DNA from: Dictyostelium discoideum
Taxonomy: Eukaryota
Direction of reading: 5' to 3'
Assembly (NCBI GenBank): GCA_000004695.1
Contig: CM000152.2
Location: 5,312,001 to 5,376,000 of the forward strand
Length of the DNA stretch: 64,000 nucleotides
In this document: positions 6,371-63,689 of the stretch, one piece after another
How the letters are laid out: every line of letters starts with the position of its first letter
How positions within the stretch are numbered: position 1 is the first letter of the stretch
Notes under the pieces: generated by a model
Told to the model about the DNA's origin: nothing
Seen by the model: the letters and a program-made list of their open reading frames with translations, nothing else
The model's database searches: none
Position numbers and translations under genes: made by a program

Positions 6371-6422
<52 letters not shown>

Positions 6423-6806
6423 ACACGATGGTCTTATGATTTTCACAATAATTTTTTTATGAAAAATAATATCAAAAATAAAAAAAATTAAATAATTGAT
6501 AGTTATATATTATTATAAACACATTTTTTATTTTTTTTTTTAAAAAGAAATTTTACAATTTTTACAATTTTTTTCAAAATCTAATTTAATAAATTGTTAA
6601 ATTAAATTACAATAAATGTGATAATTGATCGGTTTAATTAATTATTGTCAACTCTAAAATGAATAGGTATAAAGAATATTTCTGAATATATTATTTAAAA
6701 ATGTTTTTTAAAAAAAAAAAAAAAAAAAAAACTATAAATTAAAATTTTTTTTTTTTTTTTTTCATCAATTCAAATTAAAAATCATTAAATTGTATTAATT
6801 AATAAA

Positions 6807-7082
6807 ATGTCACTCTTTAGTAAGTAATTTTTAAAAATAATAAAAATAAAAAATTGACATTTAATTAATTTCTTTTTTTTTTTTTTTTTTATTTTAAAAA
6901 AAATAGAATCAATATCATCAATTTCAAAAGTTAACACTACATCTGCTAACAGTACCGTAACGTCATCCCAATTAAATAACCAATCATTTGGTGAAAACAA
7001 AATTTCTGCTGATCTTGTTACTGGTCTTGTCAGTGGATTATTATTTGGTCTTGCAAATGTAACACAAGGTTTGGGTCTTTAA
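6807..7082 (+). CDS. Small two-exon gene, 62 aa, hssA/2C/7E-like family. Exon 1 is 6807-6819, intron 6820-6906, exon 2 6907-7082.
   Basis: ATGTCACTCTTTA|GTAAGT ... aaaatag|AATCAATATC. Spliced product MSLFKSISSISKVNTTSANSTVTSSQLNNQSFGENKISADLVTGLVSGLLFGLANVTQGLGL*. Family resemblance (ISSIS.. N-terminus) is from memory only. Confidence 0.6.
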
Positions 7083-7204
7083 AAAAAAAAGAACAAAACT
7101 TTCACACCAATTTTTTAATTTATAAAAAAAAAATAAAAATGATATAGTTTAAATAACAATATATTTTTTTTCATTTTTATATTATTTTATTTTATTTTAT
7201 TTTA

Positions 7205-7235
<31 letters not shown>

Positions 7236-7633
7236 AATTATTTTTTCTTTTTTTTTTTTTTCTAATTATACTTAGTTTTATAAAAATTAAAAATCATATG
7301 ATTGTTCACAGACAGAATTGTTGTGATCGAAAGATTTGTGGGGAAAATTTTTTTAAAATCGTTGTAACCACTTTTTTAAACAAGTTTTTCCCATTATTTT
7401 TTTTTTTTTTATTTTTATTTTTTTTTACTAAATTTTTCAAAACAATCTACAAAATTAATTCTAATTCTTTACATATTTTTTTATTAATTAATTATTAATT
7501 ACATAGTAATTTAATTAAAAAATAAAATAAAAAAACATATAAAAGGAAATTGAAAAAAAAAAAAATTAAAGATATCAAACAAATAAAAACTTTAAAGTCA
7601 ATAAACCATAAAAATCAAAAAATCAAAACTAAA

Positions 7634-7904
7634 ATGTCTCTCTTTAGTAAATATCTTTAAAAAATTTAAAAAAAAAAATGATTAAATAGTTTATTTTATT
7701 AATTTTTTTTTTTAAAACAAAATAGAATCAATCTCATCAATTTCAAAAGTTAACACTACCTCTGCCAACAGTACTGTAACACCATCCAAATTAAATGATA
7801 ACCAATCATTTGGTGAAAATCAAGTTTCAACTGGTATTGTTAGTGGAATTGTCAGTGGATTATTATTTGATCTTGCAAATGTAACAAAAGGTTTAGGTCT
7901 TTAA
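7634..7904 (+). CDS. Tandem paralog of the previous small gene, 63 aa. Exon 1 is 7634-7646, intron 7647-7725 with GTAAAT donor, exon 2 7726-7904.
   Basis: About 85% identical exon structure and sequence to 6807-7082. Product MSLFKSISSISKVNTTSANSTVTPSKLNDNQSFGENQVSTGIVSGIVSGLLFDLANVTKGLGL*. Confidence 0.6.
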
Positions 7905-8047
7905 AAAAAAAATAATAATAAAACCAATATCATTCTTATTATCTTTTTTTTTAAAAAAAAAAAAAAACACTAAAATTAAAAAATAAATAAATAGAATCCC
8001 TTTAGAAACATTCTATATATAAATTATTTATATTATTATTTTTATTA

Positions 8048-9192
8048 TTATTTTCCAGATATTAATGGTGATGAAATTGTGGGTGATAAAGAATCAGAAG
8101 ATGTTGGTGGTGTACCACTACTTGATGACGATGAATCTGATGATGATGGAAATTCTGTATTTGTATTTGATGATGAAGATGATTCAATATTATTATTACT
8201 ATTATTACTATCATTATTTTGCATATATCTTTTATTTGCAGCCAATAAAATTCTTTTTCTTCTTTCATCTTCATTTTCATTTGATATAATTGGAGAATTA
8301 GTATTACTACCACTAGCACTACTACTACTTGTATCATTATCAGAACCATAAAAATTTAACCTACTACTTCCATCTTTATTATAATTGTCATCTGGTATAT
8401 AAATTGGCTTTGGACCACTATCATCTGCTAATGAATGTCCTTTACCTGAAAATGGTATTGTTGTACTACTACTACTATTATTACTACTTTTACCTTTACT
8501 ATCTACACTATTTGATGCTGATTCTTGTGGTATAAATCCAAATGATTTAGGTAAAAGACATGAAAAAAAGGTTCCTATAAATGCTAATCTATTTATATAA
8601 TTTGGAATTTCTCTATTTAATAATCTCTTTATTAATTCATTTGAGAATGTATTACAATTTCTTTTTTTTTTTTAAATAAAATAAAATAAAATTTAATTAG
8701 AAGAGAAAAAAATGAAAATGAAAATAAAAATAAAAATAAAAATAAAAATAAAAATAATATTATACTTTTTTAAAGGGTGGTAAGATTTACCAGGGAATTC
8801 TTCAGCAATATTATCAATTAATGATTGAATTTGTCTTTCTGATAATGTTACATCACCCATATATAATGATTCTCTAAATACAACACCTGTTGCTGTTTTT
8901 GGTTTTATTTCATATACACCACTAAAACTCCATTCATGTCCACTAAATCCAATTTCATTACCATTTATTTCAACTGCTGAATGAAATAATCCAACACCCA
9001 AACAATGTCCAAAATTATTTACTTTATAAAGTTATTTTTTTTTATTTTTTTTATTATAATAAATTATTTGATTAGTCTCTATTTAACAGTAATAATAAAT
9101 TAAATAATAAACATACTTGGATGTAAATCATATATATTTAAATAAACCTTTGTAATGTTTGGTCCTCTATTATTTATTGGTTTTAAATTCAT
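8048..9192 (-). CDS. DeSI/PPPDE-family deSUMOylating isopeptidase (PPPDE peptidase domain). Exon 1 is 9192-9117, exon 2 9021-8766, exon 3 8660-8048.
   Basis: MNLKPINNRGPNITKVYLNIYDLHP|...GVGLFHSAVEINGNEIGFSGHEWSFSGVYEIKPKTATGVVFRESLYMGDVTL...EEFPGKSYHPLKK|NCNTFSNELIKRLLNREIPNYINRLAFIG matches the DESI2/PPPDE1 domain. Donors GTATGT (9116) and GTATAAT (8765), acceptors ..aaag|TA and ..aaaaag|A, keep frame. Ser-rich tail with stop at 8048. Confidence 0.8.
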
Positions 9193-9302
9193 TTTTTTAT
9201 ATTTCTCTACTTTTTAATTTAAATAAATACATATACATATAAACATTAACAATGTGGTTTTTTGTTTTTATTTTTCTTTTTTTATTTTTTTTTTTTTGGT
9301 GT

Positions 9303-9336
<34 letters not shown>

Positions 9337-9662
9337 GTGTGTAAATTGTCTTTTTTTTTTTTTAAATTATGATGGTTTTTTATTAATATTTGAAAAAGAT
9401 GACGATTAGAAAAAACGACTGTTTGAATATTTTCAAATAATCATAAATATCTTCATTTTTTTTTTTTTTTTACAATTTTTCCATATTTTCATTTTTTAAT
9501 AAAAAAAAATAGAAAATTGTTTGGTTTACAATCAAATTTTTTTATTTTAAAATTGTCTATTTTTTTTTTTTTTTGAATTTGGTAACTTAGAAGTATACTC
9601 AGAATTTAAATTTAATATTTAAAGCAGGTTAATTTTGGTAAATAATGAAAAATTTCAACTAA

Positions 9663-9734
9663 TCCTCATTGGTGTAGTCGGTAACACTCTAGTCTCTCAC
9701 ACTGGTACCCCGGGTTCGATTCCCGGATGGGGAG
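9663..9734 (+). tRNA. tRNA-Glu (anticodon CUC)
   Basis: 72 nt. Acceptor stem TCCTCAT/ATGGGGA, D-arm GTGT-AGTCGGTAA-CACT, anticodon loop CT-CTC-AC, T-arm CCGGGTTCGATTCCCGG. Followed by T-run cttttttttt (Pol III terminator). Confidence 0.85.
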
Positions 9735-9772
9735 CTTTTTTTTATCAAAAAAATTTTAGATTACAGGTTCGA

Positions 9773-9789: not shown

Positions 9790-10271
9790 CCAAAGGTTGT
9801 GAGAATTCAAATTAAAAATTAAGGAATATTACTCTACATTAAAGACCCACATATACCCAAAACAGAATTTCAAAAAGATCTATTCTTAAGAGGATATAGC
9901 TACAATCAACTATTCCCAAACATATTGAAGATAAGAAATCCGAACAAATTATTTTAATAATTTTAATATTACAAATATTAGAGAATCTTCATTAACTTTT
10001 AATTCAATTATTAATAATAATACCAATTCAATAATTTTAAATCCATTATGTAATACAAATATGATTAATGATCCATATGGCCATCTATTCTTTGATTGTC
10101 TTAAAACAAAATCATATATTAATGCATCCAAACTTAAAGAATTCATCTTCAAATCAACAGGAGGAAAAAATAATTGGTTACACGAAAGAACTACCAAAAA
10201 CAACAAAACAATAAACAAAATCACACCTATTACCTTCCAACAATAATTAAAAAAAAAAAAAAAAAAAAAAA
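9790..10271 (+). mobile_element. Possible 5'-truncated non-LTR (TRE3-type?) retroelement 3' fragment ending in oligo(A), downstream of tRNA-Glu
   Basis: Composition shifts to C/A-rich non-coding sequence from about 55 bp downstream of the tRNA and ends in a 25-nt A-run (10247-10271). No intact ORF. Placement matches the downstream-of-tRNA niche of TRE3 elements. Confidence 0.3.
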
Positions 10272-10859
10272 ATAACAAATCAAAATACAACAATATAACC
10301 AATTGTTACTATTCAAATAATTAAAATAAAATAAAATAAAATAAACATTATTATTGCAGAAGGTCTAACCCTTAGCAATTAATTAATTAATAACTAAAAA
10401 AAAAAAAAAATTCACATCATAATTAAAATTCAAAAATAAAATTGTAAATTATTGTTTATTCCATTTGGATAAACACTGGTTAACCGATTTTTTTTATATA
10501 AAAAAATCATAGTCTGCTCACGAATTTAGGTGACCTAACTTAACCTTGCAAGTTTTTTTTTAATTGCTAATATTTTTAAAATTTACAGTGCAAAAAATAA
10601 TAATACATAAAAATAAAAATTAAAAAAAATGGGAAAAAAAAACAACAATCTTATAATTTTTTTTTTAAATGGACAATATGTAAATCTTTAAAGATTTAAT
10701 CATAATAATTTATTATAATATTAGTTTAAAAATACTTTCTTGATGCCGACCGTTTCTTTATCATTTTATCTAATTAATCAGTATTTCTTTTCAGGCGACT
10801 GATTATTTGATTCTCTACCAGTAGTTCTTTTAAGGAGACTGGAAATTTCTTAATTCTAT

Positions 10860-13919: not shown

Positions 13920-13990
13920 TGCGTATGCCGGGAATCGAACCCGGTTCAACTGCTTGGAAGGCAGCTATCATACCACTAGACCACATACGC
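13920..13990 (-). tRNA. tRNA-Gly (anticodon UCC)
   Basis: Reverse complement GCGTATGTGGTCTAGTGGTATGATAGCTGCCTTCCAAGCAGTTGAACCGGGTTCGATTCCCGGCATACGCA. Anticodon loop CT-TCC-AA. Near-identical to canonical eukaryotic tRNA-Gly-TCC. T-run follows on the minus strand. Degenerate exB-like GTTCAATTC about 30 bp downstream. Confidence 0.85.
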
Positions 13991-21551: not shown

Positions 21552-21580
21552 TCTGATCTAATTTAGTTCTGTAAAAAGAT

Positions 21581-21661
21581 CGACACCTGCAGGGTTCGAA
21601 CCTGCGCCTCCGAAGAGAACGCCTTAGCAGGGCGCCGCATTAACCACTTTGCTAAGGTGTC
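21581..21661 (-). tRNA. tRNA-Ser (anticodon GCU), copy 1
   Basis: Minus strand GACACCTTAGCAAAGTGGTTAATGCGGCGCCCTGCTAAGGCGTTCTCTTCGGAGGCGCAGGTTCGAACCCTGCAGGTGTCG. 81 nt with long variable arm, anticodon loop CT-GCT-AA, A box TAGCAAAGTGG, B box GGTTCGAACCC. Confidence 0.85.
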
Positions 21662-22846
21662 ATCACAAAAGTTTTGTTTGACTCACTTTATTAAAATGTC
21701 ATCTCAAACTATTTGGGGTGATACACTTTGCTTAGGTGTCACCGTGACAACAACATCAAACTCAACCTTCAATTCAAACAAATTATCCAGAACAACAACA
21801 ACCAAAATTAACACAATTAACATCAATTGAGATCTCTGCAAACTTGATTTTAGTAAATTTCTCTAAAATTTTATTTTTTTTACTTTTTTTTTCCTAGAAA
21901 TTAATTTTCAAATTTTTTTTTTTTACCTTGGAGGTTACCAAGATTTATTTTTTGTAACCTTCCAGTTTTTTTGAGTTTTTTTGAGTTTTTTTTATTTTTT
22001 ATTTTTTTTTTTTCTTAGTGTGTGTTGTTATAAAACAAATGTGTTCATATTTGTTTTAATTTTCCTCTCTTTTTTTTTTTAGTGTTTATTTATTTTTATT
22101 TTGTGTTCATTCTAACCAAGTCAAATATAAAAAGAAAAGAAAAAAAAAAAAAAGAAAGAAATAGAAAAAAAGAAAAGAAAAGAAAAGAAAAGAAAGAAAT
22201 AGAAAAAAAGAATAAAAATAATAATAAAAAAACTTTACAAATCATGTGAAAATAATAATAATAGTAATAAATCTGCTTTTATAAATTTTTTTTATTAAAT
22301 TTAAATAAAAAAAACAAATTAAGAATATATTTTTTTTGTTTTATTTTTAATTTTGAAATTTCATTTGATTTTTTCTCAAATAAAAGTAAATTATTTTTAT
22401 TTAAAATTAATTATTTGTTATCGAATAAAAAAAAAATTTAATTCAAAATAAATGAAAGTGACAATTCAAATTTATTATTTTTAAATTTAGTTTATTTTTA
22501 AAATTTACTTTTATAAACATTAAAAAGACTTGTTTTCAATTCAATGTAAAAATTTTCAATAAAAAAAACATTCATAATAAATTTTAGATATTGTCGATAA
22601 CATCAACTTATTATTTAAAAATAATCATGTTAAAAATTTTAATGTCTATTAAATATTTATTTTATTGATGACCTCACTACTTTCAAAATTTAATGCAGTA
22701 AATGGAGATCGAAGTAATAAACAAACAATCTATAAAAAATCTTGTTCAGGTTTGTTAATCTTGTTAATTCGTATTTTAATTTAAAATAATATATTTGATT
22801 AATTATTTTTATTATTTAATACTTCCCTCAGAACATTTATCTACAT

Positions 22847-22885
<39 letters not shown>

Positions 22886-23079
22886 TGGATTAACAAGATT
22901 GATATATGTCCATCTGTGTTAATACGAGTTTTATTTAATATTTATTTAAAGGCTTATCATTTAAGCTGAAGGGTTATTTTAATCATATGAATTGATCAAA
23001 AGATATAATATTTGGGAGAGATGATTCTGGTCTACATAATGGTGATGTTTTTGTATTATTTATTTATTTTTTTACAACA

Positions 23080-23090
23080 GGAGTCGAACC
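23080..23090 (-). promoter_or_regulatory. exB box downstream of tRNA-Ser copy 2
   Basis: ggagtcgaacc is GGTTCGACTCC on the minus strand, 32 bp past the tRNA 3' end. Confidence 0.6.
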
Positions 23091-23121
23091 TGTTATTATG
23101 TTTTGAATTTTGGAAAAATTT

Positions 23122-23202
23122 CGACACCTGCAGGGTTCGAACCTGCGCCTCCGAAGAGAACGCCTTAGCAGGGCGCCGCATTAACCACTTTGCTAAGGTG
23201 TC
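23122..23202 (-). tRNA. tRNA-Ser (GCU), copy 2
   Basis: Identical 81-nt sequence to copy 1. Confidence 0.85.
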
Positions 23203-23250
23203 ATCGAAAATAAAATGGGAGATACACTTTCCTAAGGTGTCATTGAATCA

Positions 23251-23527
23251 AAAAATAATCAGATCGAAAAAAACAAACAACAACAACAATCTCTTTTTTT
23301 GATTATTTCATTTTTCATATAAAAAAGACTTAAAAAACAAATAAATAAATAAATAAACTATTTTAAAAAGCCATCTTTTTACTTTATTGTAATTTATTAT
23401 TTGTTTCGTTTTGAGAATTTTGCGTAGCAAAATTTTCAAAAAAAAAGCAAAAAATAATCAGATCGAAAAAAACAAACAACAACAACAATCTCTTTTTTTG
23501 ATTATTTCATTTTTCATATAAAAAAGA

Positions 23528-23535
<8 letters not shown>
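23251..23535 (+). repeat. Two 86-bp direct repeats (23251-23336 and 23450-23535) flanking a 113-bp spacer, followed by a 44-nt poly(A) (23531-23574). Begins exactly 48 bp upstream of tRNA-Ser copy 2.
   Basis: aaaaataatcagatcgaaaaaaacaaacaacaacaacaatctctttttttgattatttcatttttcatataaaaaagacttaaaaaa occurs twice. Position is the canonical TRE5 integration distance. May be TRE5 5'-terminal A-module-like repeats or an independent insertion. Confidence 0.5.
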
Positions 23536-23574
<39 letters not shown>

Positions 23575-23578
<4 letters not shown>

Positions 23579-25280
23579 GGAACCAAGTTAATTAGAAAAT
23601 TTCCAGATTTTTAACTTTTTAAAGAAAAATAAAAAAGATAGAAAGAAAATAAAATGAAAATCCCAAACAACACCCCAAATATTAAGCAACACAAATGCCT
23701 ACAAAAAATAAGCGAAATTGTGGATAAAACTCAATTAAAAAAAAAACAATTCAAATACGTCATAAACATCAATCACGAACCAGACGATAAAATAAAAAAA
23801 GATTTAGAAAAAAGTTTGGACAAAAAAGATGTTTTAATCAAAAGTAATAATACATTCAAAATTCTCACAGACAGTATTAGTACAGTAATCTATTTTGTAA
23901 ATATGTTTGATGCAGAATTAAAAGGACAATTTATAACCACTATAAGACCAAAAAATATGTATACAGATTTTGATTGGTATAAATCACTCACAGAAATAGA
24001 ATGGGTAATAGAAAATGAAGGATGTAAACTAATTAAATCAGAAATTAAAGGCGAAACTCTAATTATCAAAACAGTGAAAAGAGTCGTAGAAGAATTTGAC
24101 ACTATCATTGAACTAGACAATCTAACATTAATTGGACACTCCAACAAAGGATGGAGAGATCAAACCTCATTACCAGAAAATCAAGAAGAAAACAAAAATA
24201 AAAAACAATCAGATGAACAACAACCACAATCTACATCAGAACAAATACCAAAACAAGGAAAAAGAACAATCATTATCCCACCAATCACATCCTCATCTAA
24301 TGATAAAACATTTATGGCCCTAGATGATACAGCTCAAAAGGTAATAGAAGCATCACTAGAAAACGTAGATGAACTAACAAGAATAGAGAATGAGATCAAT
24401 ACACAATCGATAAACAATCAAGAAATTAAAACAAAATCAGAAAAACCTATCGAACCACCATCTCCATACAATACACCAATAAAACAACACGGCGAAACAA
24501 AGGGACTAACAACGGAAGAAAAACTTAGAGAGGCAAATGATATCTTCGACTTCACCAGCCCAAACACTGATGCAATAAGAAAAATAGAATTCCCACTTTC
24601 AATCCCTTCAAATCAATGGTTCTTCTCCTCTCCAATAAAACATATCATGAGTTTCAGCCCAACCTATGGGCACCATCGAAAATTATCGATTCACCAAGTA
24701 AATTGTTAAACACACCAAAAAAGAAACAACAAGACAAAACAAACAAGACCAACAAAACACCAGTCAAACCAAAATTGGGTGAATATGGACAAAAAAGCAT
24801 AAAAACAAAAATGGATGAAGATATAGACAACTTCAACAAGGAAATTCTAAAACAAATCAATAAATCAAAAAACCCCACAAACACACAAGACCAACAACAC
24901 AACGAACAAAGTAAAGATCAGTTAGAAGACAAAATAAACCAGAAACTTCAAAAGGTAGATAAAAATCTACCCCAAATAAAACTATAAAGAAAAACACAAT
25001 AAGAATAGGTGTTTGGAACGTCCAAGGATCCAACACCATCCAATCTGCCAGCATAATAAACACCGTTTTAGACAACAACAAGCTGGACGCAGCACTTCTA
25101 ACTGAAACAAATATAAAAACAAATAAAATTTACTCAATAAATCAACAATATAAAAACAAAATAACACACCACGCACCAATTGATAAAACAGGACAAGGGG
25201 TGTCACAAATCATCATCAACACCCGCAATAGAACTTCCTAAACATCTCAAAAAATACAATAATTCACTCAGTACTTTTTA

Positions 25281-25340
<60 letters not shown>
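23575..25340 (+). mobile_element. TRE5-type non-LTR retrotransposon fragment. Short 5' leader, ORF1 (23654-24709, continuing after a +1 frameshift to 24987, about 445 aa total), the start of the ORF2 endonuclease domain (about 25000-25250), then a 60-nt poly(A) 25275-25340.
   Basis: ORF1 MKIPNNTPNIKQHKCLQKISEIVDKTQLKKKQFKYVININHEPDDK... ORF2 begins RIGVWNVQGSNTIQSASIINTVLDNNKLDAALLTETNIK, an APE-like IGxWNVxG motif. Location and orientation relative to the tRNA-Ser genes match TRE5 (DRE-like) elements. Assignment to the TRE5 family is from recalled knowledge. Confidence 0.6.
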
Positions 25341-25341
<1 letters not shown>

Positions 25342-25665
25342 CAAGTTAATCAGAAAAATAAAAAAGATAGAAAGAAAATAAAATGAAAATCACAAACAAC
25401 ACCACAAATATTAAGCAACACAAATGCCTACAAAAAATAAGCGAAATTGTGGATAAAACTCAATTAAAAAAAAAACAATTCAAATACGTCATAAACATCA
25501 ATCACGAACCAGACGATAAAATAAAAAAAGATTTAGAAAAAAGTTTGGACAAAAAAGATGTTTTAATCAAAAAGACCCTGTAAAAAAAAAAAAAAAATAA
25601 AATGAGATCTAGCATCTCAAGGAGAAGCAAATAATAATTGCGTTATCCAATTCAAAAAAAAAAAA
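25341..25665 (+). mobile_element. Second, internally deleted TRE5-type copy. 5' leader plus the first 65 codons of ORF1 (25383-25577) are joined directly to a 78-bp 3'-terminal module and oligo(A).
   Basis: Leader and ORF1 start are over 95% identical to 23589-23850. Junction atcaaaaag|accctgtaaaa. 3' module ...tgagatctagcatctcaaggagaagcaaataataattgcgttatccaattc(A)13 is identical to the mini-element at 27501-27590. Confidence 0.6.
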
Positions 25666-25968
25666 AGGTGTCATTGAATAAAATGGGATGATACACTTTG
25701 CTAAGATGTCATCGAAAACCAAATGGGTAATACACTTTGCTAAGCTGTCATCGAAAACCAAATGGGTAATACACTTTGTTAAGGTGTCATCGAAAACCAA
25801 CGGGTGATACACTTTGCTAATCTGTCATCGAAAAATATTTGGGTGGTAAACTTTGCTAAGGTGTCCACACAAAATATTTGGGTGATACACTTTGCTAAGG
25901 TTTCGTCGAAAAATATTTGGGTGATACACTTCGCTAAGGTGTCATTGAAAAATAAACCACCACAAGAC
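25666..25968. repeat. Tandem array of about 7.5 units of 38-40 bp. Each unit holds the revcomp of the first 17 nt of tRNA-Ser (including the A box) plus its immediate 5' flank.
   Basis: Units such as gatgtcatcgaaaaccaaatgggtaatacactttgctaag repeat. The same unit is present in 1-2 copies directly upstream of each intact tRNA-Ser gene. No complete tRNA is attached to this array. Confidence 0.8.
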
Positions 25969-27311
25969 TAATTTTTTGATAAATAATTTTTTTTTTATAG
26001 TTTTTATTGTTTTTTTTATTTTTTTTAAGAAAATGTGGCTGAATAATAATTTTTGAAACTATATTAAAATAAAAAATAATTAAAAAAAATACAAAAAATA
26101 AAAATAATCAGTAAAGTGATTTATATTTTTAATTTATAAAAAAATATAAAAAAAATGAATATACATTCTGCAAACTCGATTTGACTCCATTTGGTTTCTA
26201 ATTGTCTTAAAAATTATTTTTTTTATTTTTCCTTTTTTTTTTTCTTAATTTTTTAAAAAATAACAATAAATCTTACCCTATCAAAATTGTTATTTTTTTT
26301 TCTATTTTAGGATTTATTACATATTTAATTAATATAATTACTTTATTACTATTGTATTTTACAGTTGTAGTTTTTTTTATATAAGATGGCTCGAGATGAG
26401 TAACTGGACTGTCTAATTTTAGGAATTTAAAAAAAAAAATAAAAACTATTCAGAGAACCCAATTTCATTTTTAATTTTTTTTTTTTTTTTAGGGAGTTTA
26501 ATTCAAGAACAATTATAAACCATTTTAACTAATAATAATATAAGTTTTTTTTTTTTTTTATAATATTTTATAATATAAGTTGTTTTTTTTATTTTATTTT
26601 ATTTTTTTAATTATAATTAAATTTGTTTTTGAAATGCAGTTTTATTTAAAAATTCTAAGGTTTTTTCAATAAACTTTATTGAAAAATTTAGGGGAGTTAT
26701 ATGGCCATATATTTTCCTTAATGTCATGGTGCATAGATAAATCTTTCCTTTCTCTGACTTTAGATTAATATTGATTATTTTTATTTCCCTTTGGATATGA
26801 TAGTATTGATATGAACATTGATGTTTTAATAATACACATTTTTCAGCATTTCTATTGTAAAACAACACTTCTATTTAATTTAATGTCACATTTCATCAAC
26901 ACCAATATTTAACTTAAATTTTTTTTTTTTTTTTTTTTTTTTTGATTTTTTTTTTTTTTATAATTTTATTTTAATTTTTTTATATAAAAAGATATAATTT
27001 TTTTTTTTCATTTTATTATTAATTTAAAAAGGTAAAAAAAAAAAAAAAACATTTAGTAAAAACTTTACTTAAATAATCATGTTAAAAATTAATATCTATT
27101 AAATATTTATTTTATTGATGACCTCATTAAATTCAAATTTTAATACAGTCAACGGAGATCGAAGTGCCTGTATCTTAAATTGTGCTCATTAACAAACAAT
27201 TTATATAAAATCTTGTTCAGATTTGTTTATCTTGTTAATTCGTTTTTTATTTTTGTTACTAACATACTATTGATCTACAAATAGTAATAGTAAGCATTTT
27301 ATTTTTTCCAA

Positions 27312-27322
27312 CAGGAATCGAA
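27312..27322 (-). promoter_or_regulatory. exB box downstream of tRNA-Ser copy 3
   Basis: ggaatcgaacc is GGTTCGATTCC on the minus strand. Confidence 0.6.
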
Positions 27323-27365
27323 CCTGTTATTCAGCTTTGAATGTTGGGAAATTTTTGCAAAATTT

Positions 27366-27446
27366 CGACACCTGCAGGGTTCGAACCTGCGCCTCCGAAG
27401 AGAACGCCTTAGCAGGGCGCCGCATTAACCACTTTGCTAAGGTGTC
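27366..27446 (-). tRNA. tRNA-Ser (GCU), copy 3
   Basis: Identical 81-nt sequence to copies 1 and 2. About 170 bp of 3' flank (27066-27245) is homologous to the flank of copy 2 (22605-22770), so these copies sit in a segmental duplication. Confidence 0.85.
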
Positions 27447-27493
27447 ATCCAAAACCAAATGGGAAATACACTTTGATAAGGTGTCATCGAAAA

Positions 27494-32738: not shown

Positions 32739-33178
32739 TAATAGTAATTAAATTTAAATTTTTTACTAACATTTTTATTTTTTTTTTTTTTATTTTTTTT
32801 ATTTTGTTTTTTTAGCAACATTTCAATTATTATTTGAAGATATGGAAACTATTAAAGATGAAGATCCAATTGAATCATTTAATTTAGAAGTTAATAGATT
32901 TGATTATTTTATGGCAATTGGTTATCCTGATGAATTTTATAAACCAATTTCAAGTTTTAGTTATATTTCATTGGATAAGATAAGTTCATATGTTCATTAT
33001 TATCAAAGACCAAATTCAACAATACCATGTTTAAAACCTGAATTATTTTTAACTAATCAATTAATTGAATTAAAAAATCATCAATCTAAAAATCAATTTA
33101 AAATGTCAATTGAAATATTTGAAGATTATGGTGATCAAAATAATAATAATAATAATAGTAATCACAATAATAATAATG

Positions 33179-33248
<70 letters not shown>

Positions 33249-34342
33249 GAGCGAAGATGAAATTAATAATTTATTATCAAAAGATGATTTTTTATATACT
33301 TATTGTGATTCATTAGAATTTCAAGATTCAAAGAGTAGATTATTATTAGGTTCAATTTGTTTTGTACCTTCAATGTTATTTATAAATAGATTTATAAATT
33401 GGATAAGTTTACCTGACCCAACTACATTTGATCCTGAATTATCAACAAAAATATCATCACCTCAACAATTACAAGAACAAATGAAAAAACAACAACAAGA
33501 AGGAAAAGATCAACAAAAATCAAAAGAAAATAGTATAGTATCATTAAATAATTTAGTTATACATTTTGGTTCAAATAATTCACCAAGATTAAAGATATCT
33601 TCTAAATCATTGATTATATTTCAATTATTTGATTCTGGTGATGATGAAGTATTACAATTTCAAATGTATCAAACTAAAATATTGATGAGAGAAGTCGATT
33701 ATAAGAATCAAGATTATAAAACAATTGGTGAATCCTATAATTCAAAAGATTTATTATTCCTCTTAAAAATGAATCAAGATAAGAAATGCTCAAAGATTGA
33801 AATCATTGAACATTCCTATGATATTAGATTATCAAAAAAAGAATTTATCATCTTAAAATCATTATTCCCAAGATTCCTTCAAAAGTTAACTCAATTAATG
33901 GTCATAAAACAAGATCAAAATGATAAAAAAAATCCTGAAACTATTACAACCAAATTATTAGATAAAATTGATAGTGTTCATATAAATTATGATTATCAAA
34001 TTGATAATCAACAATTTAATAATAATAATGATAATAAAAGTAATAAATTTCAAACAACTACAACTACAACTACTCAACAACAACAATCTCAACCTCAACA
34101 ACAATCTCAACAACAACAAAAAGTTGAATTTTCAAGTGAAATACCAAATCATCAATCAAGTATACCGATTAATTTTCAAATTTATATTATTGATTTAGTA
34201 ATTTATTTTCATATAATAGGAAATGATAATAATAGCAGTATTGTATTAGAAGCAAATATATCTGAATTAGTACATACAACTTATCATCAAAATAAAAAGA
34301 AAAATCAATTAAATAATAGTTATCATCCACAACAACACCAGC

Positions 34343-34377
<35 letters not shown>

Positions 34378-34807
34378 AATACAGCATCATCTTCATCATC
34401 ATCAAGTGAACAACGTCAACAAAGAAGTATTAAAGATTATGATAATTTATTAGTAGTTAATATTAGTTCATTATTAATTAGAGATAATGTTAGTAATTAT
34501 TATCAAAATTTATTAGGACCTCTAAGTCATTTTCAAATGATTGCAATCGATGATTTTGAAATTGATGATAGTGAAAAAGAAAGAAAAAAGAAACATCAAC
34601 AAGAAGAACTTTTAAAACAAAAAGAAAATATACTTTCATTTATTTTTGCAACAAGAGTTGATATATTCAATAGAACTTTTCATAATTTAAAATTACATAT
34701 TTCACCTTTATTCTTAGAATTTCATCAAAAATCGGTTGATTTCTTATTACATTTCTTTTCAACTGATGATAATTTTAATAATTTTGATTTTAATGATACA
34801 AATAATC

Positions 34808-34899
<92 letters not shown>

Positions 34900-35862
34900 A
34901 ATAATCAACAAAATAATAATGAAACAAATGATGAAAATAATAATAATAGTAATAGTAAATTTTTAAATGATGAAAATGAAAATGAAATATTTTATGATGA
35001 ATTTGAAATTTATCCATTACAATTTAAAGTTGATTATAAACCTTCATCAATTTTAACAAATCATAGTTTTACAAAAGGTGGATTTGTATGGGTATTCCAA
35101 ATGATACCATTGAATGATGCATATTTTACTTTACCACATATTCATATTAGAGATATTGGTAGTAAAGCATTGTCAGAGAGTATAATGTCAATTTATTCAC
35201 CACATCTATTTGGAAAGAATATATTTCAATATTTAGGTGGTGTAACACCAATTTCAATTGGTATTGGTATTGGTAGATCAATTATGGGTTTAATCATTCA
35301 TCCAATTAAGGAAGCAAAAGATAGTGAAAATGTTATAGCAGGTCTAGGTAAAGGTTTAACAAAGGGTATGAAGAAAATCACTGTTGAACTCTTAACAACA
35401 TCTTCAAAGATGACAGGTTTCGCTTCGAAAATATTTGGTACTTTAAATAATCAAGCCTCTCATAATCAATCCATTTGGACAAGTCAACCAGAGAATTTAA
35501 CTGAAGGTGCCAAAAAGGGAATGTCAAAAATATTTGGTGGATTTTATAATGGTGTTAAAGGTGTGATCGATCCTTTCTCTCAATCAACTGGTCCAATCAA
35601 TTTCTTAAATAATATGTTTTGGGCTGTACCTGGTTTATTAGTAAATCCAATACTTGGTATTTCAGATGGTATCACCTTTTTTTCTTTAGGTCTTAGAAAT
35701 AGTTTAGATTATACTAAAATTGAAATGGAAAGAAAGAAATTTAAACCAAAAAATCTAATTTCCACTTCTCCAACTAGTAATAATTCACCTTTATTACAAA
35801 ATTCAAATAATGAAAATAATAGTGCTTTTTTAAGATCTTCAACAAGTAATATAAATATTTAA
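30487..35862 (+). CDS. Chorein-N family bridge-like lipid-transfer protein, ATG2-like, about 1760 aa. Exon 1 is 30487-32689, intron 32690-32815, exon 2 32816-35862.
   Basis: N-terminus ...LKNVVFDQEKLKPKLVGLPFSFGMIKVAEIELTIPLDDIYNKPLSIKINGLEIEIMPV fits the chorein-N pattern shared by VPS13/ATG2. C-terminus FVWVFQMIPLNDAYFTLPHIHIRDIGSKALSESIMSIYSPHLFGKNIFQYLGGVTP resembles the ATG2/VPS13 C-terminal (ATG_C) region. Donor G|GTAAGG, acceptor ttttag|CA, intron contains TACTAAC. Choice of ATG2 over other chorein-N proteins is tentative. Confidence 0.6.
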
Positions 35863-57693: not shown

Positions 57694-60796
<3,103 letters not shown>

Positions 60797-60933: not shown

Positions 60934-63689
60934 TTATCTATATTCTCTTACTAAAAATCTTAAGAAAACATAAGCTAATAATAAATAACCAACAATCATA
61001 CCAAGCAAAACATACATATCAGTGAATAATCTATTTGGATTTGCACCAATAGTTGAAAGGAATTCTAAACCATCAGCATAAGTGGGTCTTGTGTTTGGAG
61101 GATTATATTCAATCCAAAGACCATTGAATTCATTGACAACAGGAATTTCCAAACCATATGACATAAAACTAATCCAAACCAAACCAATTAAATACTTGGG
61201 AATTGAACTTCTTGCCAAAAGGAAACCATCAAATAATAAAAATACAAAGAGTAACAAGATTGACACCATATTTGCAGTACCAAACGTTGGAGAGATTGTA
61301 CTGATTGCCATACACATTGATGAGGCCACTGTACTTGTTAACACCAAAGAGATGAGGAAATAGATGAAATGGAGGATACCAGGACGTAAACCAATCATAT
61401 AATAACAAATTGAACCCAAAATAATTGGTGGTATAACTCTCATTGGAATGATATCGGTTACTACTTTGGCTAAAAAGTATGCTGATGTTCTATAGAAACC
61501 ATTGGCTCTTTCACGAATGAAAATGATACGGTCATTGTAGAAAAGATCTAATGATGTAATACTTCCAAATGAGAGTAAAGCAGTCATGAAAAACATTGCA
61601 CCAAATCTATTTTGACAACCTGGTTCAAGATTGGCTGGTAATTTCCAAAAGAGATAACCTAATGTTAACCCAACAAAAATATGTACAAAGTAAGTGGTAC
61701 GCAAAAGGAAAGGATTTCTCATATAATTTAATAAAGAACGACGGCAAACTACAAAAAATTGTGTCCAAAATGATGTTGCATATTCTTCAACTTTACCAAT
61801 TTTAATATGACTTGCTAATGGTTCACCTTGATTACCAACTACAATAATTGGACTTGCTTCTTCAATATCTTCAACATCATCATCATTATTTTTATTATTA
61901 TTATCATTATTCTTTACTTTATTATTATTATTATTATTATTAATATTATCACTTGCTAATAAATGATCTCTTTCATCACTATCACTATCACTATCATTAT
62001 TATCAATTGATGGACCATTAATACCATATATATGACGATGATGATGATGATGTTGTTGATGATGAATATTTTGATTATGTGGATTATTAATGATACGATG
62101 ATGATTTAAATTAATATCACTATTATTACTATTTGAAGATAAAGCTGGTGAAGTAGATTGATAAAATGGTGAAGCAACACGAGAATCAACATAGGTTGAA
62201 TTAAATCTTTGACAATTTTTATCGGTGACCATTGAAATGATGAAATCTGCAGGATTTTTAAGATGCATTCTATAGTTTTGTTGTTCAAATTCAGTCATAC
62301 CAGCAATTTTCTGTTTAATGAAATAGTTTACAGAGTCCTCTCTTTTACCAGAGAAATAAGGATTACCTTGATGTAAGAGGATCAAATTATCAAATTGTTC
62401 AAAGAGTTCAGCGGAAGGTTGATGAATTGAAAAGATGATAGTACGTTGACCCTTTGTTGAATTGTTTGCCAATTGTTTAAGTTTAGTGATTAACTCTGAA
62501 GCGGAATGACTATCAAGACCAGATGTTGGTTCATCGATGAATAGAATACTTGGATCAACTATTAATTCGGTTGCGATCGATAGTCTTCTACGTTCACCAC
62601 CAGAGATACCTCTCTTCTCTGAGGTACCAATTGGGTTATCGGCCACACGAGTTAAGCCCAACTCCTCCAATACACTTGCGACACGTTGTTGTTTGATTTC
62701 CAATGACATATTCTCTGGAAGTTTTAAAAGGGCAGCAAACATCAAATGTTCACGACATGTTAAAGTACCAATTTGAATATCATCTTGAGTGACATAACCA
62801 GAGATTCTCTTAAAGTTTTTACCAACGGGTGCACCATTGATCAATACTTTACCATCGATGTTACCAACGTTCTTTCTACCCGATAGAATATCCAATAAAC
62901 TTGTTTTACCCGAACCCGATAAACCCATCAATGCTGTCAATTGACCGGGTGGACAAACACCATTGACATTATCTAAAATTTGTTTTCTCTTTACATCCTT
63001 ACCAAAGAATCCACTACGTTCATTAACGTAGCAACTAATATTATGAAAACTTAATTCACAAACTAAATGTGTATCTTCTTTAAAGTTTTTACGATCTTCT
63101 TGAAGTGAGAATATTAAAAAGATTGCACCAATCAATAGAGTCAACCCAATGAATCCAACACCTGACCCAACATAAATGTATAGGAAACTCATTGATGCCA
63201 CTGGTACCGGATAAATGGGTGGTGGTGTTGGTGCACCCGTTGCAACATCAATACATTCACCCGACATACATTGTAATGGAATGGCTGGTAACATTTGATT
63301 GATTGTATATTGTGAGAAAAGACAATTGCTAGTTCCATCTGGATTCGTTTGTGCTCCACATTCAAATGTTGCCTCACCTGTAACTGCACTAATTAAACCA
63401 TCCAATATGAATCCACAATAGGTAGTACAATTACAAACACTATTTTGACATACAATCGATTGATTTTGACCTGGTAAAATAGTACGATCACATTCTGTAA
63501 ATGAACAATTAAAATATAATGGTGATCCATGAATTCTATAATATAAATTCATTGAACAAACTCCTGTTTGTGTATTATAATTTCCACCTGGAAATTGACA
63601 ATCAATTGATGCTGATGCTGTTGAATTATTTAAATCACCATTAACTTCTGCACCTATTAAATTAAAATAAATAATTATTAATTTTTAAT

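Follow-up and report, generated by a model that had tools for sequence, protein, structure and literature searches.

The 64-kb stretch of Dictyostelium discoideum DNA analysed here (the window) carries at positions 6807-7904 of its plus strand two mini-genes arranged head to tail, with a distance of 827 bp from start to start. The reading which we favour as a whole, and regard as likely, is that of a tandem pair of spliced genes which belong to a cysteine-free branch of the hssA/2C/7E genes, are induced late in development, are under selection at the level of the protein and may code for small structural or adhesive peptides. That the two represent genuine protein-coding genes is almost certain. 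Their parts are as follows.

6807..6819, plus strand: exon 1 of copy 1 (DDB_G0282037), ATGTCACTCTTTA, 13 nt consisting of ATG and 10 further nt, ending in phase 1
6820..6906, plus strand: intron of copy 1, 87 nt, GTAAGT...TAG
6907..7082, plus strand: coding sequence of exon 2 of copy 1, residues 5-62, with the TAA stop at 7080-7082
7634..7646, plus strand: exon 1 of copy 2 (DDB_G0282039), ATGTCTCTCTTTA, 13 nt
7647..7725, plus strand: intron of copy 2, 79 nt, GTAAAT...TAG
7726..7904, plus strand: coding sequence of exon 2 of copy 2, residues 5-63, with the TAA stop at 7902-7904

Spliced translation predicts MSLFKSISSISKVNTTSANSTVTSSQLNNQSFGENKISADLVTGLVSGLLFGLANVTQGLGL (62 aa) as the product of copy 1 and a protein of 63 aa as that of copy 2. 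This bears out the common structure which an earlier reading of the stretch, made without database searches (the sequence-only reading), had proposed, with a 13-nt first exon, the donors GTAAGT and GTAAAT and products of 62-63 aa, as well as its distance of about 830 bp between the copies. The single intron per copy also agrees with that reading, while the sizes of 87 and 79 nt differ from the 80-87 bp it had given, and its value of about 85% protein identity has to be lowered to about 82% (51 of 62 aligned positions). The coding sequences are identical at 168 of 192 positions, with 24 differences and a single 3-nt indel. An identity of 65/87 between the introns is close to the AT-rich background, and the introns together with 200-nt flanks are no more alike than that background. 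Both start codons are found in an AAAATG context. In the frame of exon 2, neither copy contains an in-frame ATG downstream of the upstream stop codon, and splicing to the 13-nt exon is therefore obligatory for the formation of a protein.

A tblastn search of the window with one of the products retrieved the other copy at E=7e-24 and nothing further with E<1, and this search and a pattern scan for genes with 13-nt exons show just these two copies in the 64 kb. An independent repeat finder working without gene models returned the segments 6875-7096 and 7694-7918 (87-88%) as the sole repeats that are not of low complexity. Two open reading frames (ORFs) at 6785-7000 (minus strand) and 7298-7498 (plus strand) are regarded as chance occurrences in DNA of such high A+T content. 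The G+C content of the window, which to judge from the size of its contig (6.36 Mb) and from the gene numbering belongs to AX4 chromosome 3, is about 20%, a value typical of Dictyostelium. The long A/T homopolymers previously pointed out as flanking the pair are real (A45 at 6375-6419, A22 and several T18), but ordinary in this DNA, which contains 138 A/T runs of at least 12 nt, or 2.2 per kb.

The AX4 annotation already holds these exact gene models, which are thus not newly discovered genes. The product of copy 1 is 100% identical to DDB_G0282037 (P0001), and the predicted 63-aa product of copy 2 reads the same as DDB_G0282039 (P0002). Both are listed as "hypothetical" or "uncharacterized" in NCBI and UniRef and carry no precomputed Pfam domain, and a full-text literature search for the two identifiers found no paper. 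The search for homologues named in the sequence-only reading did return matches, consisting of the AX4 proteins and of relatives from D. firmibasis and D. citrinum. What is new here is the family assignment, the recognition of a conserved pair under purifying selection, and the cases of mis-annotation in sister genomes.

The locus is conserved in D. firmibasis, where the annotated orthologue P0003 (copy B) occupies positions 10001-10281 of the contig piece L001 (CM069765.1). A second copy (copy A), which represents a complete gene of the same structure and is unannotated in the assembly, is found about 800 bp upstream of P0003; its product has 62 aa and reads MSIFKSISTISKVN...GLGL. The features of importance for the comparison are listed below.

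L001 9109-9391, plus strand: D. firmibasis copy A, with exon 1 at 9109-9121 (13 nt), donor GTAGGT and exon 2 at 9216-9391
Window 6595..6647, no strand assigned: conserved non-coding block of 53 nt, about 170-210 nt upstream of copy 1
Window 8048-9001, minus strand: PPPDE / Peptidase_C97 gene flanking copy 2

With the low-complexity filter, blastn produced a single collinear alignment of window 6462-9497 with L001 8751-11937 at 72% identity; an unfiltered search with AT-rich intergenic DNA was discarded as it returned low-complexity noise only. In a global alignment, copy 1 pairs with copy A and copy 2 with copy B of D. firmibasis, and in each of the two species a PPPDE / Peptidase_C97 gene follows downstream, encoded on the minus strand. 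The presence of the collinear pair in both species indicates that the tandem duplication is older than the split between D. discoideum and D. firmibasis. Sequence identities above 85% are confined to the exons and to the upstream block at 6595-6647, the sole conserved non-exonic block of the locus, which is 87% identical to L001 8886-8937 within a region of otherwise about 63%. This block may be a candidate promoter element; a comparison of four upstream regions revealed no G/C-containing k-mer of at least 8 nt common to all of them.

As judged from the substitution patterns, both copies appear to be kept by purifying selection on the protein. The ratio of nonsynonymous to synonymous substitution rates (dN/dS) amounts to 0.32 between copy 1 and copy 2 (Fisher p=0.015), 0.25 between copy 1 and D. 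firmibasis copy A (p=1e-4) and 0.20 between copy 1 and copy B (p=3e-5), and the indels among the copies are multiples of 3. A value that does not fit as well is that for copy 2 and its positional orthologue copy B, where dN/dS is 0.54 and the shortfall from 1 lacks significance (p=0.15). For the first 14 codons, the ratio of nonsynonymous to synonymous differences per site (pN/pS) comes to 0.15 while the synonymous sites vary (pS 0.32), as against about 0.6 in the codons thereafter, indicating a constraint on the protein that is strongest at the N-terminal 14-mer. The dS values of the paralogues within a species (0.26 and 0.20) are similar to those of some cross-species pairs (0.25-0.62), which, on the small number of sites available, may point to some gene conversion.

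Very short ORFs of low-complexity composition and with no domain above threshold might be taken for functionless decaying duplicates or an annotation artefact, but the ORFs are intact at orthologous positions in two species, are under purifying selection and show strong stage-specific expression, and the data on conservation and expression effectively dispose of this view. A further alternative is that the transcripts are active and not the peptides, as has been suggested in the case of hssA, the STATa culmination defect still being suppressed by a construct with a shifted frame. The very high late transcript levels and the lack of a recognisable fold in the peptide would agree with it; however, several comparisons give a dN/dS significantly below 1, pN/pS falls to 0.15 in the first 14 codons, the reading frame is kept by the indels, and introns and untranslated regions are not conserved, which leaves an activity of the RNA very unlikely.

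Published RNA-seq tables show a rise of about 1000-fold by 20-24 h for DDB_G0282037, with values of 0.6, 0.7, 10.1, 4.3, 34.1, 499.8 and 691.8 at 0, 4, 8, 12, 16, 20 and 24 h (PMC6198379 supplementary file 5). The same file lists 40.1 for prespore versus 0.6 for prestalk cells, and values in transcripts per million (TPM) of 44.9 in cup, 7.1 in spore, 9.7 in stalk and 0.17 in vegetative cells, and Kin et al. (PMC6198379) include the gene in their "Cup" sheet. DDB_G0282039 and DDB_G0282037 stand next to each other in one filter_UP column of Rosengarten et al. 2015 (PMC4403905 supplementary file 7), which we infer from the layout of the sheet to be UP_Hr20_gradual; two further literature supplements contained nothing on either gene. 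It follows from the published tables that both copies are transcribed and are induced together at culmination (about 18-24 h).

A profile search extends the group by a sister clade consisting of DDB_G0282399 (P0007, 56 aa), two proteins of D. firmibasis (P0004, 56 aa, and P0008, annotated with 30 aa) and one of D. citrinum (P0006, 58 aa). All genes of this clade that were read in the DNA begin with ATGTCTCTCTTTG followed by the donor GTAAAT and therefore have a 13-nt exon 1, as do 8/8 genes of the whole subfamily whose DNA was read. Genes of the DDB_G0282399 type form head-to-head pairs in D. firmibasis and D. citrinum. DDB_G0282399 has a time course of 0, 0, 0, 1.2, 284, 1413 and 556 over the same 0-24 h series and is enriched in stalk (PMC6198379). 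A search of 1.84 billion representatives with a hidden Markov model (HMM) returned nothing credible beyond this clade, and a match of 553 aa (P0005) was rejected as a repeat-protein artefact. As far as annotated proteins go, the clade seems to be confined to the D. discoideum species complex, a restriction that must be regarded as weak because such genes often go unannotated.

The next question is how this subfamily relates to the hssA/2C/7E (sigN) genes. The sigN family comprises 96 sigN-like genes with products of less than 120 aa, of which 89 contain a 13-nt exon-1 ORF; the proteins have a conserved N-terminus and a divergent C-terminus, and the genes are arranged as inverted pairs (Vicente et al. 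2008, PMC2257962). The same exon architecture has been described for hssA genes by Kin et al. (PMC6198379). From sequence comparison, the pair probably constitutes a divergent Cys-free branch of the hssA/2C/7E (sigN, PF05710) superfamily, which in our reading retains the 5' module of the superfamily (exon 1, intron and N-terminal 14-mer) and differs in its C-terminal half. With 62 and 63 aa the products fall below the size limit of the family, the genes are composed of a 13-nt exon-1 ORF, a short intron and exon 2 as in the family, the N-termini conform to M-T/S-I/L-L/F-x-SISSI, and expression is developmentally regulated. In both window proteins the N-terminal module M-S-L-F-x-S-I-S-S-I-S is found directly after the splice junction, and the near-invariant N-terminal 14-mer reads MSLFKSISSISKVN. 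An hssA-type gene of D. dimigraforme (L004, 9780, minus strand) has ATGACAATCATGG followed by GTAAAT and encodes MTIMASISSIGNVK..., from which it follows that the intron position is homologous, lying in phase 1 within codon 5 and directly before SISSI. The HssA/B-related domain PF05710 ("Coiled"; gathering cut-off 21.4 bits, profile of 90 positions) gave the following scores.

Window copy 1: 16.0 bits
Window copy 2: 21.1 bits
P0003 (D. firmibasis copy B): 18.5 bits
D. firmibasis copy A (unannotated): 22.2 bits
P0004: 24.7 bits
P0007: 26.6 bits
P0006: 26.8 bits

Four relatives of the window proteins therefore exceed the cut-off, and clade members fall on both sides of 21.4 bits. The match covers the N-terminal 36-45 residues in 7/7 real members scanned, with residues 1-38/43 of the window proteins aligning to profile positions 1-36/40, and no match was obtained with the truncated 30-aa P0008, the N-terminus of which is missing, nor with any of 10 composition-matched shuffles.

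The affiliation also faces a number of adverse observations. Both window proteins score below the gathering threshold of PF05710, and they lack the Ser/Gly/Cys-rich composition and the C-terminal cysteines of the family, containing 0 Cys, 12 Ser and 6 Gly among 62-63 residues. Compared with an hssA-type protein, hhalign aligned residues 1-17 only, with MTILASISSIGNIKSSS, at 59% probability, and BLASTP gave no significant match, both comparisons being made with a single sequence and not a family alignment (an hssA probe matched one database protein, P0009). Neither gene appears in a curated listing or under a family label: none of the rows in the 96-gene sigN list of 2008 corresponds to either of them, its chromosome 3 entries including no protein of 62 or 63 aa (its sigN183, 56 aa and on chromosome 3, may be DDB_G0282399), and the product field of DDB_G0282037 is empty in a dictyBase-derived table in which family genes are labelled "hssA/2C/7E family protein". 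DDB_G0282039 did not turn up in the portion of these tables that was covered. Finally, the pair is arranged head to tail, while sigN and sister-clade genes form inverted pairs.

Some of these points are shared by the view that the pair belongs to an independent, lineage-restricted family which merely resembles hssA/2C/7E and has obtained its N-terminus and 13-nt exon convergently or through the capture of a 5' exon/intron module, with no homology of the whole genes. The short hhalign alignment, the lack of BLASTP significance, the sub-threshold PF05710 match ending at about position 40 of 90, the different composition of the Cys-free C-terminal half and the absence from the sigN-like list are all as expected from such an origin. 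The identical intron phase and position before SISSI, the exon-1 length common to 89/96 family genes, and the four close relatives above a curated Pfam cut-off that was reached by 0 shuffles speak against it, and the sigN family is itself conserved N-terminally and divergent C-terminally (PMC2257962), so that an independent origin appears unlikely. The assignment to hssA/2C/7E made by the sequence-only reading can thus be upheld for the exon architecture and the N-terminal PF05710 match, with the reservation that the scores of the pair are sub-threshold and the Cys tail is absent.

The window proteins consist of the N-terminal 14-mer, a Ser/Thr/Asn-rich segment predicted to be disordered and a Gly/Leu-rich C-terminal part predicted to be helical. 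AlphaFold2, supplied with a six-sequence alignment, modelled one helix at residues 39-59 and left the remainder unstructured, at low confidence (predicted local distance difference test, pLDDT, 61.6). The pre-mRNA of each gene has to be spliced so that the 13-nt exon 1 is joined to exon 2, giving a protein of 62 or 63 aa, from which a tryptic peptide such as VNTTSANSTVTSSQLNNQSFGENK is expected. A tentative functional sketch may be drawn by analogy with the SigN proteins. The proteins may serve in terminal differentiation as abundant small peptides that are structural, adhesive or matrix-associated, or weakly bound to membranes. The N-terminal 14-mer would be a functional module common to the family, with a possible part in targeting, processing or interaction, and the variable C-terminal Gly/Leu helix would mediate self-association or weak membrane association. 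A role in terminal differentiation is suggested because of the data on SigN secretion and adhesion, which are tentative themselves: secretion or extracellular action has been suggested for SigN group 2, with the evidence called tentative (PMC2257962).

Several properties of the proteins speak against such a role. Apart from the low model confidence, the N-terminus is not signal peptide-like (Kyte-Doolittle (KD) value of 0.13), the hydrophobicity of the C-terminus is borderline (KD19 maximum of 1.39-1.46), a D or E residue is present in the middle of the C-terminal segment of most members, and an amphipathic helix was rejected, as the last 22 residues have a hydrophobic moment no higher than that of shuffles (p=0.05-0.7). 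Some of the same values enter into the possibility of tail-anchored or C-terminally membrane-inserted mini-proteins, held in the membrane by the Gly-zipper-like segment LVTGLVSGLLFGLANVTQGLGL. The predicted helix 39-59 is located at the extreme C-terminus and contains a GxxxGxxxG pattern in copy 1, the mean Eisenberg hydrophobicity reaches 0.52-0.65 in four members of the clade of the pair, and residues 54-76 of SigN were predicted as transmembrane segment (PMC2257962). Yet KD19 values of 1.39-1.46 do not reach the cut-off of about 1.6 that is usually applied, 3/4 clade members have D or E at position 52, and the sister clade is far less hydrophobic (mean hydrophobicity 0.29-0.39, KD19 0.87) but keeps GLVSxLLF, which makes a membrane insertion doubtful.

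More speculative, and quite unlikely in our estimation, is that the near-invariant 14-residue N-terminus common to about 100 hssA/sigN genes, for which the 13-nt exon and the beginning of exon 2 code, represents a dedicated leader for unconventional export or processing. It would be compatible with the present data because the constraint on the leader (pN/pS 0.15) is stronger than on the remainder (0.6). The superfamily would in that case combine a conserved leader with a freely diverging C-terminal peptide, and the Cys-free clade would be recognised as a new class of peptides which are made in the sorus or cup late in development and contain a Gly-zipper helix; they could, for instance, shield the spore mass as peptides of the matrix, of adhesion or of antimicrobial defence.

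The sequence-only reading had also expected that genes of this kind are easily missed by annotation. This applies to D. firmibasis, D. citrinum and D. dimigraforme, but not to AX4, where both genes are present without a family label. In addition to the unannotated copy A, P0008 of D. firmibasis (RB653_006365, 30 aa; L002 about 9050-9307, minus strand) covers only part of a 56-aa gene, the 13-nt exon 1 having been overlooked in the model, and D. citrinum contains a further unannotated copy (L003 9304, minus strand), which is the divergently oriented partner of P0006. The hssA-type protein P0009 of D. dimigraforme (L004 10001-10727) has an artificial N-terminus of 23 residues; its expected exon 1, ATGACAATTTTTAG at L004 10396-10409, has 14 nt, exceeding the 13-nt rule by one T, and the frame is therefore broken, either by a homopolymer assembly error or by a real frameshift. 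In the 80 kb inspected, missed or mangled genes amount to three clear cases and a probable fourth.

The genes neighbouring the pair in the window are ordinary chromosomal genes. A tRNA-Glu(CTC) gene (9663-9735, plus strand) follows just past the PPPDE peptidase gene that flanks copy 2, and a tRNA-Gly(TCC) gene is present at 13920-13990 (minus strand). Three tRNA-Ser(GCT) genes are encoded on the minus strand at 21580, 23121 and 27365 (region 21580-27447). An ORF of 351 aa without Pfam match (23654-24709, plus strand) is located 5' of the middle one at a distance of about 450 nt; the region around it has an elevated G+C content (0.31), a strong A-skew and the runs A44 (23531-23574) and A53 (25287-25339). 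We take the region 21580-27447 to resemble a tRNA-targeted non-LTR retroelement of the TRE5 type. Other genes identified in the window are the following.

32842-35862, plus strand: Atg2-like protein gene
57758-60796, plus strand: Pet127 homologue gene
60934-63552, minus strand: ABCG-type transporter gene

The value of these results lies mainly in annotation, as they tie two hypothetical AX4 genes and the small DDB_G0282399 clade to the large hssA/2C/7E (sigN) superfamily. They place the conserved unit of the superfamily in the 13-nt exon and the N-terminal 14-mer, not in the Cys/Gly-rich tail, and they demonstrate that such genes continue to be overlooked or distorted when newer dictyostelid genomes are annotated automatically. 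As a finding this is correct but ordinary, and it opens no new biology by itself.

Among known systems, the closest relative found is the DDB_G0282399 clade, which shows 48-57% identity to the pair over the full length, the same first 14 residues except for K5A, the conserved motifs ENK and GLVSxLLF and no Cys. DDB_G0282399 is located on the same AX4 contig as the pair, the clade is found in D. firmibasis on the contig of the pair at a distance of about 265 kb, and it is likewise induced late (16-24 h). In contrast to the pair, its proteins have 56-58 aa with a deletion of 4 residues before the helix and a less hydrophobic C-terminus, its genes form inverted (head-to-head) pairs, its transcripts are enriched in stalk and not in prespore or cup cells, and its PF05710 scores exceed the cut-off (24.7-26.8 bits). 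The hssA-like, cup-specific bei genes (beiA = DDB_G0276063, beiE = DDB_G0276687) are likened to DDB_G0282037 by expression only, being very late and cup-enriched as well, whereas their level in cups ranges from hundreds to tens of thousands of TPM as compared to 45 TPM and, being labelled hssA/2C/7E genes, they cluster tightly in a clade of their own.

The hssA/2C/7E (sigN) family itself, with about 96-100 genes in D. discoideum, differs from the pair by products of mostly 75-100 aa instead of 62-63 aa, by 4-6 Cys including a C-terminal CGC[HN] where the pair has none, and by C-terminal halves that are not alignable with those of the pair; induction of sigN and hssA takes place in prestalk cells at 10-12 h, whereas DDB_G0282037 is prespore/cup-enriched and induced at 20-24 h. 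Common to the family and the pair are the 13-nt exon-1 ORF with one short phase-1 intron and another exon, the N-terminal M-[ST]-[IL]-[LF]-x-S-I-S-S-I straight after the splice junction, a Ser-rich low-complexity middle part followed by a hydrophobic, Gly-containing C-terminal segment, the very high and developmentally regulated transcript levels, and the occurrence as closely linked gene pairs.

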